A program made the translations under genes and the position numbers. DNA of 64,000 nucleotides from Terriglobia bacterium (lineage in GTDB: Bacteria > Acidobacteriota > Terriglobia > JAJPHL01 > JAPKYU01), in contig CBDBKE010000004.1 of the NCBI GenBank assembly GCA_965206645.1, positions 1,152,001 to 1,216,000 on the forward strand, written 5' to 3'. Shown here one piece after another: positions 20,940-22,331 of this stretch (its first letter is position 1; each line of letters starts with the position of its first letter). The notes under the pieces were generated by a model that was not told the origin of the DNA, searched no databases, and saw only the letters and a program-made list of their open reading frames with translations.

Positions 20940-20973
20940 TTTACTCGCGATAACTGGAATTATCGCGAGTAAA
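20940..20973 (+). other. lox-like recombination site 1 (13-8-13)
   Basis: TTTACTCGCGATA-ACTGGAAT-TATCGCGAGTAAA; perfect arms; 38 bp upstream of the recombinase ATG. Confidence 0.85.
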
Positions 20974-21011
20974 AATGAGCGGTCTTTTTCGACGGAACGG
21001 GAGGCCGCCCG

Positions 21012-21995
21012 ATGCTGATTGCCGAGACGCCATGCGATGTCGAGCGTGTGACCGGCGTGGCACACGCCGCGGAGGTTGGGGACTCCCTGGCCGCTTACTT
21101 CGACGCGGCCCGGGGGGCGTTCAGCCACAACACCGAACGCGCGCTGAGAGCCGACGTGGAGATATTCGCAGCCTGGTGCCGACAACATCTCCGGGCGGCG
21201 TTGCCCGCCAGCGTCCCTACCGTGGTCGCGTTCATCGACGACATGGCGCGCGTCAAGACTCCGGCGACGGTGCGCCGCTACGTGTCCAGCATCGCCACCG
21301 TGCACAAGGCGCTACGGCAGACGAACCCGCTGGACAGCGCCGCCGTCCGGTTCGCCCTGCAACGGATGCACCGGCGCCGGGGGCGTCGGCAGGCGCAAGT
21401 CCAGGGGCTGACCTGGCCGATGCGAAACCGACTGCTGGAGGCGGCCGGAGACCGGTTGATCGACGCCCGGAACCGCGCGCTCCTGGCGATGGGCTACGAC
21501 ACGCTGCTGCGGCGCTCCGAGCTGGTCTCGCTGGACGTGTCTGATGTACTGGAGGAAATCGACGGAACGGCGACGCTGCTCGTGCGCTCAGGCAAGACCG
21601 ACGCGGAGGGGCGAGGCGCGACGCTCTACCTGGCGCGCGACACCGTGCAGCTCGTCAAGACGTGGCTCGAACGGGGCGGCGTCGACGGAGGGCGGGTGTT
21701 CCGCTCCGTGCGCAAGGATCGCACGGTCGGCGAGCAGCTCGACGCGAGCCAGGTGCCGCGCATCTACAAGCGGATGGCGCGACACGCCGGGCTTCCCGAC
21801 GACATCGTCGACGCGCTGGCCGGGCACAGCACGCGCGTCGGGCCGGTGCAGGACATGATCGCCTGTGGCATCGAGTTGCCGGCCATCCTGCAGTCGGGTC
21901 GGTGGAAGACGACGCGCATGGTCCACCGCTACGGGGAGCGGTTGCTGGCGCGGCGCAGCGGCGCCCCCCAGCTGGCCGAGCGGCAGCAGCGCTGA
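21012..21995 (+). CDS. Cre-type tyrosine site-specific recombinase
   Basis: RNRALLAMGYDTLLRRSEL, SGKTD, GHSTRVG, GRW, MVHRY give the full R-K-H-R-W-Y set as in Cre; SAM-like N-domain; 327 aa. Confidence 0.92.
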   Translation: MLIAETPCDVERVTGVAHAAEVGDSLAAYFDAARGAFSHNTERALRADVEIFAAWCRQHLRAALPASVPTVVAFIDDMARVKTPATVRRYVSSIATVHKALRQTNPLDSAAVRFALQRMHRRRGRRQAQVQGLTWPMRNRLLEAAGDRLIDARNRALLAMGYDTLLRRSELVSLDVSDVLEEIDGTATLLVRSGKTDAEGRGATLYLARDTVQLVKTWLERGGVDGGRVFRSVRKDRTVGEQLDASQVPRIYKRMARHAGLPDDIVDALAGHSTRVGPVQDMIACGIELPAILQSGRWKTTRMVHRYGERLLARRSGAPQLAERQQR

Positions 21996-22297
21996 ACAGG
22001 CCCCACCCTGGAGGCGGCGGGTCGTGACGCTGGCGCGCACGTCAGGGGTAGAGGTTCGCCCGCGCCGTCCCCAGCGGCGCCCTCACATCTCTGGGACGTT
22101 ATCGCGAGCAAAAAGTCGACATTGTTGCTACATGTCCCGCGATGGGCGCGGCGCACTCCGCCGGTTGTTTCGTCGGCAGACGCAACCCTGTTCCGACAGA
22201 ACCGCCGTGATTTCAGCGGTTTATTACTGAAAGTGATGGCGAATGCGGGTCACGGTGTGATACGCTCGCGCCGTACCGACTTGGCGCGGAACTGATT

Positions 22298-22331
22298 TTT
22301 GTGCGCGATAATTCCAGTTATCGCGAGTAAA
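22298..22331 (-). other. lox-like recombination site 2, inverted relative to site 1
   Basis: TTTGTGCGCGATA-ATTCCAGT-TATCGCGAGTAAA; spacer is the reverse complement of site 1; inner arm has 3 mismatches. Confidence 0.8.

Follow-up and report, generated by a model that had tools for sequence, protein, structure and literature searches.

In a 64,000-nt stretch of DNA from a Terriglobia bacterium (GCA_965206645.1, contig CBDBKE010000004.1; here called the window), a gene for a Cre-type tyrosine recombinase lies between two inverted sequences that resemble lox sites. The gene (21012 to 21995, plus strand) encodes 327 amino acids (aa) with an intact catalytic set (R167, K195, H272, R275, W298, and Y307). 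Reading of the sequence together with a 34-mer search placed site 1, TTTACTCGCGATA-ACTGGAAT-TATCGCGAGTAAA, at 20940 to 20973; it has a 13-8-13 layout with perfectly palindromic arms, and a gap of 38 bp separates it from the recombinase ATG at 21012. The inverted site 2, TTTGTGCGCGATA-ATTCCAGT-TATCGCGAGTAAA, was placed in the same way at 22298 to 22331, starting 302 bp past the recombinase stop codon. Its spacer is the exact reverse complement of the spacer of site 1, and the two sites differ by three mismatches at adjacent bases, all within the inner arm of site 2, which faces the gene. These data confirm the original prediction, which had described a perfect 13-8-13 site 38 bp ahead of a 327-aa open reading frame (ORF) and a second, inverted site with the same spacer and three inner-arm mismatches about 300 bp past its stop. 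Because the same three changes are present in six other loci of the family described below (L005, L014, L027, L016, L037, and L025), the inner arm of site 2 represents a conserved variant and not random decay.

A 34-mer search allowing up to three mismatches found exactly two places in the window and no match in 100 shuffles. In the 4.4-Mb genome, the core GATA-N8-TATC occurs 15 times, and only four of these occurrences resemble the site, two in each of two modules; all four full sites and all eight half-site matches in the genome fall within the two cassettes. No solitary or empty docking sites were found in the genome. The second cassette lies 136 kb away on the same strand and shares 98% (protein) and 98.8% (DNA) identity with the first. 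Between the recombinase gene and site 2, we found a lone internal half-site, TATCGCGAGCAAA (22100 to 22112, plus strand), about 105 bp past the stop codon and conserved in the alignment of other loci, which is probably an accessory binding site for the recombinase. Farther along, the alignment revealed a conserved noncoding block near the site 2 end (22207 to 22266, plus strand), which ends in an outward-pointing TGnTAnnnT-like motif (TGTGATACGCT, 22256 to 22266). This motif is weaker than the promoter-like matches of loci L030 and L029 (see below), and the block is a possible candidate for a weak outward promoter. Comparison with known RNA families gave only a chance-level match, on the palindrome itself. 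As a whole, the cassette has the layout of an inverton, in which inverted sites bound a segment with the recombinase gene inside.

Compared with solved structures, the 327-aa protein has Cre as its best relative (E value of 1.8e-24 over residues 21 to 313, spanning both domains). Its identity to P1 Cre is 27.8%, covering 84% of the length. We also obtained a Pfam Phage_integrase match (8.1e-16) and a weak match to a SAM-like N-terminal domain. The claim that the Cre catalytic set is kept was borne out, as R167, K195, H272, R275, W298, and Y307 align with the catalytic positions of Cre and are invariant across 14 members of the family. The protein combines this set, in a C-terminal fold, with an N-terminal helical DNA-binding domain, the combination that characterizes Cre-type enzymes. 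From these comparisons and the family data that follow, the protein is a Cre-type tyrosine recombinase, and the two 34-bp sites are very likely its own targets, the enzyme and sites forming a cognate pair.

Relatives of the gene were sampled by one scan of a genome collection (27 loci) and one scan of metagenomes (69 further loci), and the loci carry names of the form L0xx or L1xx. The proteins of the 27 genome loci are 63 to 88% identical, and the metagenome-assembled genomes (MAGs) that carry them are labeled Vicinamibacterales, Terriglobia, Versatilivoraceae, Bryobacterales, Gemmatimonadetes, and Gammaproteobacteria. One chromosome holds four loci and two other MAGs hold three each, and many genomes hold only one. 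Can the same palindrome be found beside these homologues? The check proposed with the original prediction was run, and an inverted pair of sites surrounds the recombinase gene in 24 of the 27 genome loci, the exceptions being L031 and L033, with site 1 only, and L032, with no site. Both ends were present in 43 of the 69 metagenome loci, and 16 of these have the flanking inverted pair, which is all but one (L045) of the 17 loci with identity of at least 57%; the two-site layout occurs in none of the 26 metagenome loci with identity of 53% or less. The 13-8-13 register could be assigned in 14 of the 16 two-site metagenome loci. Altogether, the site-recombinase-site module is found at 40 loci (34 unique) in MAGs of Acidobacteriota, Gemmatimonadota, and Gammaproteobacteria.

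A quick tree was built from 63 of the approximately 100 loci, with partial matches, exact duplicates, and L015 (internal stop) left out; removal of L057, L082, L087, and L092 (stops) gave 59 proteins. All 32 two-site rows lie inside one clade of 36 rows with a Shimodaira-Hasegawa-like approximate likelihood ratio test (SH-aLRT) value of 99. The remaining four rows of the clade have one site, degenerate sites, or none detected, and the two-site layout occurs in none of the 23 rows outside it. In a search of the order within Terriglobia, 2 of 11 genomes carried the gene. Among annotated sequences, the nearest relatives (46 to 50% identical) are unnamed recombinase genes carried by plasmids of Methylobacterium and Lichenicola. 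Neither of the two plasmid relatives examined has the two-site layout; L115 has no palindrome, and L116 has one upstream.

The two sites of each module change together. The central 6 bp of the spacer are matched between partner sites in 33 of the 34 unique modules, which represent 11 core types (CTGGAA, CTGGAT, CGGGAT, CTGCCT, CTGTAA, CTGTAG, CTGTAT, CTGTCG, CTCTCA, and CTCTTA among them). When cores were re-paired at random, matches averaged 7.3 and never exceeded 16, and none of the 10,000 shuffles reached 33; relatedness of the loci inflates this test, with at least nine independent core changes still matched on both sides. The whole 8-bp spacer is matched in 27 of the 34 modules and unmatched in seven, L025 among them. 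Differences between partner sites are located at spacer positions 1 and 8, each of which differs in four modules, and at the arm tips. Cre makes 6-bp staggered cuts, and the pattern fits what would be expected for exchange over a 6-bp overlap, as in Cre. The arms vary by lineage (TATCGCGAG, TATCGCGCG, and TATCGGGAG). The lone half-site is present in 26 of 32 loci and missing where the 3' segment is short, and all 18 aligned loci keep its core unchanged; in L034 the arms and the lone half-site both carry TATCGGGAG, a joint change. Layout conservation, core matching, and the covariation of arms with the half-site all back the claim of a cognate enzyme-site pair unlike described systems.

What lies next to the module at other loci? 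All eight site 1 neighbors tested encode a large secreted protein with fn3, Cadherin-like, Calx-beta, Ig-like, Big_12, or SWM domains or repeats, in a gene diverging from the recombinase gene. Of 24 further loci, 20 have a minus-strand ORF of at least 400 aa that begins beside site 1, frequently encoding a signal or lipoprotein peptide, although in GC-rich DNA the length of an ORF by itself carries little weight. Several of these left-neighbor proteins have autotransporter-like ends. In L028, L030, L043, and L044, a Shine-Dalgarno motif and the ATG of the adhesin-like gene lie 22 to 31 nt from site 1, and therefore transcription of this gene must cross site 1 from the cassette. On the other side, about 100 bp of the outer flank of site 2 is conserved in 11 loci, and in six of these a converging GAF/LuxR regulator gene follows. 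In the canonical arrangement, a large adhesin-like gene has its 5' end on one side of the module and a GAF/LuxR regulator gene has its 3' end on the other. Given the conserved lone half-site and the conserved flank, the recombinase may require accessory elements.

Some modules contain promoter-like elements at the site 2 end. In L030 and L029, the sequences TTGACG-17-TACAAT and TTGACG-17-TAGGAT, respectively, point outward at this end, and each is the sole match in 1.5 kb on both strands, where 0.2 to 0.3 would be expected. Across 35 modules, the outward strand of the site 2 end gave 4 promoter-like matches at a score of at least 9/12 and 10 at a score of at least 8/12. The five controls gave 0 each at the stricter threshold and 2, 0, 0, 0, and 0 at the looser one.

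On the basis of these data, we propose that the module is a self-contained inverting cassette that switches the adjacent adhesin gene and that the copy in the window is intact but orphaned; we give this reading a probability of roughly 0.6. The unit of about 1.4 kb would comprise site 1, the 38-bp leader, the recombinase gene, a noncoding segment of about 300 bp with the half-site and the promoter-like element, and site 2. With the same 6-bp crossover core in opposite orientation at the two ends, recombination would invert the cassette, recombinase gene included. The inversion would exchange the cassette end that faces the adhesin gene, placing there either the recombinase leader or the promoter-bearing 3' segment. 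The predicted outcome is on/off phase variation of the adhesin gene, following the logic of the Hin segment with the chemistry of Cre. We infer the inversion itself, the promoter activity, and the control of the adhesin gene from features that are directly observed, namely, the geometry of the module, its conservation, the covariation of sites and cores, the neighboring genes, and the recombinant junction of the window described below.

Several observations weigh against this proposal. No population or pair of assemblies was found with the cassette in both orientations between the same flanks, and in six sets of identical modules drawn from different assemblies the orientation never varied. 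Among 41 loci, the window's is the sole site 1 flank that matches a site 2 flank (10 of 10 cross matches), and the window junction can be explained without a simple flip. Contigs of 14 sequencing runs contain part of the L005 locus, and those of four runs (from four studies) were compared with L005 positions 6800 to 10300. No inversion joint at the sites was found in these four runs, in which the pieces are 130 to 370 bp long and come from mixed strains, so that the result speaks neither for nor against inversion. The sole opposite-strand joint, in one contig of run X11, connects L005 positions 7914 and 8948; its sequence suggests a variant cassette with site 2 about 15 bp past the stop and no 3' segment, and not an inversion. 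A strict promoter-like match was present in just 4 of the 35 modules, the counts are not phylogenetically independent, and the scan of the window's own module found nothing at the threshold of the tool. In addition, the promoter-like element faces away from the adhesin gene everywhere except at the window's left junction, so that either the prevailing state is "off" or the model has the wrong end driving transcription. The cassette in the window has no adhesin gene on either side. Finally, inverted identical ends are also typical of transposon termini, and covariation alone is compatible with mobility.

The arrangement of the window is atypical, which the original prediction did not notice. 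Each of its two sites closes, on the inner side, one arm of a long inverted repeat that has diverged. The arms (about 18140 to 20979 and 22292 to 24228) are 91 to 99% alike in blocks, with indels, and 96 to 99% identical for hundreds of base pairs adjoining the sites. Long arms of this kind are found only in the window; an inverted repeat of 30 to 48 bp is present in 23 of 25 other loci and none in L029 and L031. Outside site 1, the left arm (18140 to 20939, plus strand) carries an ORF for a GAF and LuxR (GerE) regulator (19074 to 20426, plus strand), which reads toward site 1, and a SprT-like gene (18084 to 18629, minus strand), which a small repeat cuts at its end; the final 100 bp or so of the arm (about 20830 to 20939) is the flank conserved across loci. 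The right arm (22332 to 24228, minus strand) begins with its own copy of this conserved flank of about 100 bp (22332 to 22440), followed by a second GAF/LuxR gene copy (22780 to 24057, minus strand), which reads toward the cassette, and a partial SprT-like gene (23794 to 24195, plus strand). An in-frame 228-bp deletion has removed the GerE helix-turn-helix (HTH) from the right-arm regulator copy; the HTH is retained in the left-arm copy and at the second locus. The right arm stops exactly where homology to an "empty" rhomboid locus of a sister genome starts (24232).

Comparison with the second cassette and with the sister genome (G007) points to the origin of this structure. At the second locus, homology to the window starts exactly at the outer edge of site 1, and the left neighbor is a 1,433-codon ORF for an fn3/cadherin-like secreted protein. 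The sister genome has two canonical loci (adhesin gene, cassette, and arm), which lie on opposite strands 306 kb apart. The window recombinase has 98 to 99% protein identity to the three copies at canonical loci. The left arm of the window is the orthologue of the site 2 arm of the second sister locus, L113 (98.4% identity over 800 bp), such that an arm of the L113 type is joined to site 2 in the sister genome and to site 1 in the window. Site 1 of the window is a hybrid, with an outer arm and flank of the site 2 kind and an inner arm of the site 1 kind; the site 2-type base in its outer arm is as expected for a crossover inside the spacer. There are three arms in the window genome and two in the sister genome, and the unique 5' part of the L113 adhesin gene is not present in the window genome. 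Judged by these junctions, the window copy is best explained as two regulator arms joined over one module by recombination between two such loci. The most economical route would be a deletion by the recombinase, acting on directly oriented sites in two canonical loci that face each other. Such a deletion would join a site 2-type arm to the inner half of site 1, which is the structure of the window; an inversion followed by a second event would be the alternative. The left outer flank of the window consists of repeats, and copies of insertion sequences (IS) are abundant in both genomes. The right flank maps to another contig of the sister genome, beside the "empty" site, and the far side of that site has no counterpart in the window genome.

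The structure of the window raises a second reading, in which the sites serve mainly for recombination between loci and reshuffle pairs of adhesin genes and regulator arms, as in multilocus antigenic variation. The window is the exact product expected from site recombination between two modules, and the two modules lie on the same strand 136 kb apart here but on opposite strands 306 kb apart in the sister genome. Modules within a genome also often share a core, as with CTGGAT, which is common to all three loci in each of two MAGs. However, the abundant IS copies could account for the rearrangements, many sampled genomes have a single module, and core identity within each module is selected even where paralogues differ. 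Deletions between modules are moreover irreversible and would provide no switch. We consider it unlikely that exchange between loci is the principal role of the sites.

A different possibility is that the module is a selfish element resembling an insertion sequence, with the sites as its terminal inverted repeats, the recombinase as its transposase, and its proximity to adhesin genes as a target preference. Several findings are in keeping with mobility: the multiple copies per genome (four in one MAG chromosome and three in each of two others), the spread of the family over at least three phyla with L029 and L030 as sisters on short branches, and the "empty" locus of the sister genome that adjoins the outer end of the window's right arm. 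In pairs of paralogous cassettes such as L016/L038 and L018/L040, homology also breaks off sharply at the outer edges of the sites. The sequences lack the other marks of transposition, though. There are no target site duplications, the longest abutting direct repeat averaging 2.14 nt compared to 2.15 nt in mismatched controls, and, as described above, no solitary or empty docking sites were found in the genome. The flanks of 32 loci contain no extra sites apart from four weak half-site matches at chance level. Copies within a genome are, segmental duplications apart, only about 84 to 93% identical, unlike copies of an active IS, and the module keeps a constant position and orientation with respect to the start of the adhesin gene and the end of the regulator gene. 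Cre-type chemistry requires matching cores in both partner sites, which likewise weighs against a mobile element. The target duplications, near-identical copies, and empty sites that mark insertion sequences are absent here; the IS model is weakened, and we judge it improbable.

Could the arrangement in the window instead be a relic with no current role? An inversion of the 1.4-kb segment could also stem from homologous recombination between the arms, given their 96 to 99% identity over hundreds of base pairs beside the sites. The absence of an adhesin gene on either side, the loss of the HTH from the right-arm regulator, and the small repeat that cuts the left arm fit this reading. The recombinase ORF, on the other hand, is intact with all catalytic residues and 98 to 99% identical to the copies at canonical loci, and both sites are intact with identical 8-bp spacers, making this explanation very doubtful. 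Integron-like capture was rejected, as no second site lies beyond the neighboring genes in the flanks of the 32 loci, the four weak chance-level half-site matches aside.

The proposed inverting cassette has parallels among known switches. In the Hin segment, an outward promoter lies at the far end, and flipping links it to a surface-protein gene or uncouples it; Hin itself belongs to the serine recombinases and depends on an enhancer and on Fis. The hin gene lies inside its own invertible segment, as stated for the Salmonella H segment in PMC5903667. The module described here shares this layout, a recombinase gene inside a segment bounded by inverted sites, but has a Cre-type tyrosine enzyme, and its inversion and promoter activity are predicted. 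In uropathogenic Escherichia coli, the tyrosine recombinase gene ipuA lies beside and partly inside the promoter-bearing invertible element ipuS, which controls the autotransporter adhesin gene upaE; ipuS measures 260 bp, has inverted repeats of 7 bp, and includes no more of ipuA than its end (PMC6083910). A tyrosine recombinase and an adhesin are thus shared with ipuS/IpuA (ipuR-upaE) and with the fimS/FimB-FimE family; here, a LuxR-type regulator gene also adjoins the module. Unlike in ipuS, the whole recombinase gene is inside, the ends are full 34-bp lox-like palindromes, and the regulator gene converges on the cassette instead of being driven by it. In the FLP/FRT system of the yeast 2-micron plasmid, the targets of a tyrosine recombinase lie in long inverted repeats, and recombination flips the intervening DNA. 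The kilobase arms of the window resemble this arrangement. Here, however, each site terminates its arm on the inner side instead of lying within it, the locus is on a chromosome and is not known to be tied to replication, and none of the 25 other loci examined has long arms.

The Cre-type systems Cre/loxP, Dre, Vika, VCre, Nigri, Panto, and YR1 to YR11 (Jelicic et al. 2023) likewise consist of a two-domain tyrosine recombinase of about 330 aa with the residues R-K-H-R-W-Y. They also use a 34-bp target near the gene, with inverted 13-bp arms and an asymmetric 8-bp spacer, and the limitation of covariation to the central 6 bp here fits the 6-bp staggered cuts of Cre. A published discovery route (PMC10250229) looked for a palindrome within 1 kb of a Cre-type gene and yielded about 500 predicted and 8 validated systems. 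The present family differs in that two inverted sites bracket the gene and in that the modules are chromosomal, multicopy, and located beside adhesin genes. The possible novelty raised in the original prediction was supported, as an identical site was absent from 72,556 plasmid and 50,697 phage records and literature searches yielded no description of it. Nor did we find in the literature a Cre-type cassette bracketed by its own inverted sites, although the roughly 500 predicted pairs of Jelicic et al. (2023) might list a member of the clade. Judging from these comparisons, the enzyme-site pair appears to be of a kind already known, Cre-type genes with nearby palindromes, and the self-contained cassette layout would be what is new.

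More tentatively, at somewhat less than even odds, the family may constitute portable "flip cassettes" that provide each adhesin gene with a private switch across at least three phyla of uncultured, partly sponge-associated bacteria, with at least ten incompatible lox cores and with arm specificities that co-evolve with the enzymes. If the proposal is true, Cre chemistry would here underlie a Hin-style "recombinase inside its own switch" for the first time, and phase-variable adhesins would exist in uncultured, host-associated Acidobacteriota, Gemmatimonadota, and Gammaproteobacteria, for which genetics is lacking. For genome engineering, the Cre-type clade would offer unrelated arms and a natural series of matched core variants; the three arm variants, paired with their own enzymes, would provide material for orthogonal tools and for the study of arm recognition. 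The rearranged locus of the window illustrates how such sites can reshape chromosomes.

Additional observations concern individual members of the family. In L038, an insertion of about 1.4 kb (7115 to 8598) between the recombinase gene and site 2 holds an opposite-strand ORF of 445 aa. The recombinase gene of L015 (2820 to 3800) has an internal stop codon, yet both sites and matching spacers are kept. L029, from a Bryobacterales MAG, and L030, from a Gemmatimonadetes MAG, have recombinases that group as sisters on short branches, and both use the CTGCCT core, which suggests either recent transfer between phyla or a binning error. On the Methylobacterium nodulans plasmid pMNOD01 (L116; recombinase 49.5% identical), the single perfect palindrome GTGAACCAAGTGA-N9-TCACTTGGTTCAC (3239 to 3273) lies about 155 bp upstream of the gene and may be the cognate site of this enzyme, in the usual single-site arrangement. 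A look-alike single site, CTACTTGCGATA-AGTGGAAT-TATCGCAAGTAG, precedes a type I restriction-modification operon in 11 records of Acetobacter plasmids (L117, 3001 to 3036; L118, 3001 to 3030). No recombinase gene lies close to it; one plasmid carries just a distant recombinase, 56 kb from the site, and the second plasmid carries none.

Other features of the window lie in or around the arms. Over the 5' part of the left-arm regulator gene, the ORFs at 18956 to 19405 and 19074 to 20426 overlap in different frames, and the former begins like the 378-aa regulator beside L026; the gene may be frameshifted or fused. Repeats of 131 to 135 nt, 95 to 98% alike, occur at 1627 to 1757, 5363 to 5498, 18008 to 18141, 34887 to 35021, and 42628 to 42763. 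The copy at 18008 to 18141 adjoins the outer end of the left arm and is the one that cuts the SprT-like gene, which makes it look like a small nonautonomous mobile element. Insertion sequences are plentiful in the region, and a perfect inverted pair of 1,281 nt lies 31 kb apart (5688 to 6968 and 37733 to 39013). An IS5-like element with a DDE transposase is present in three copies (9090 to 10153, 11885 to 12948, and 25318 to 26375), and the sister genome carries dozens of copies of the insertion sequences of the window.

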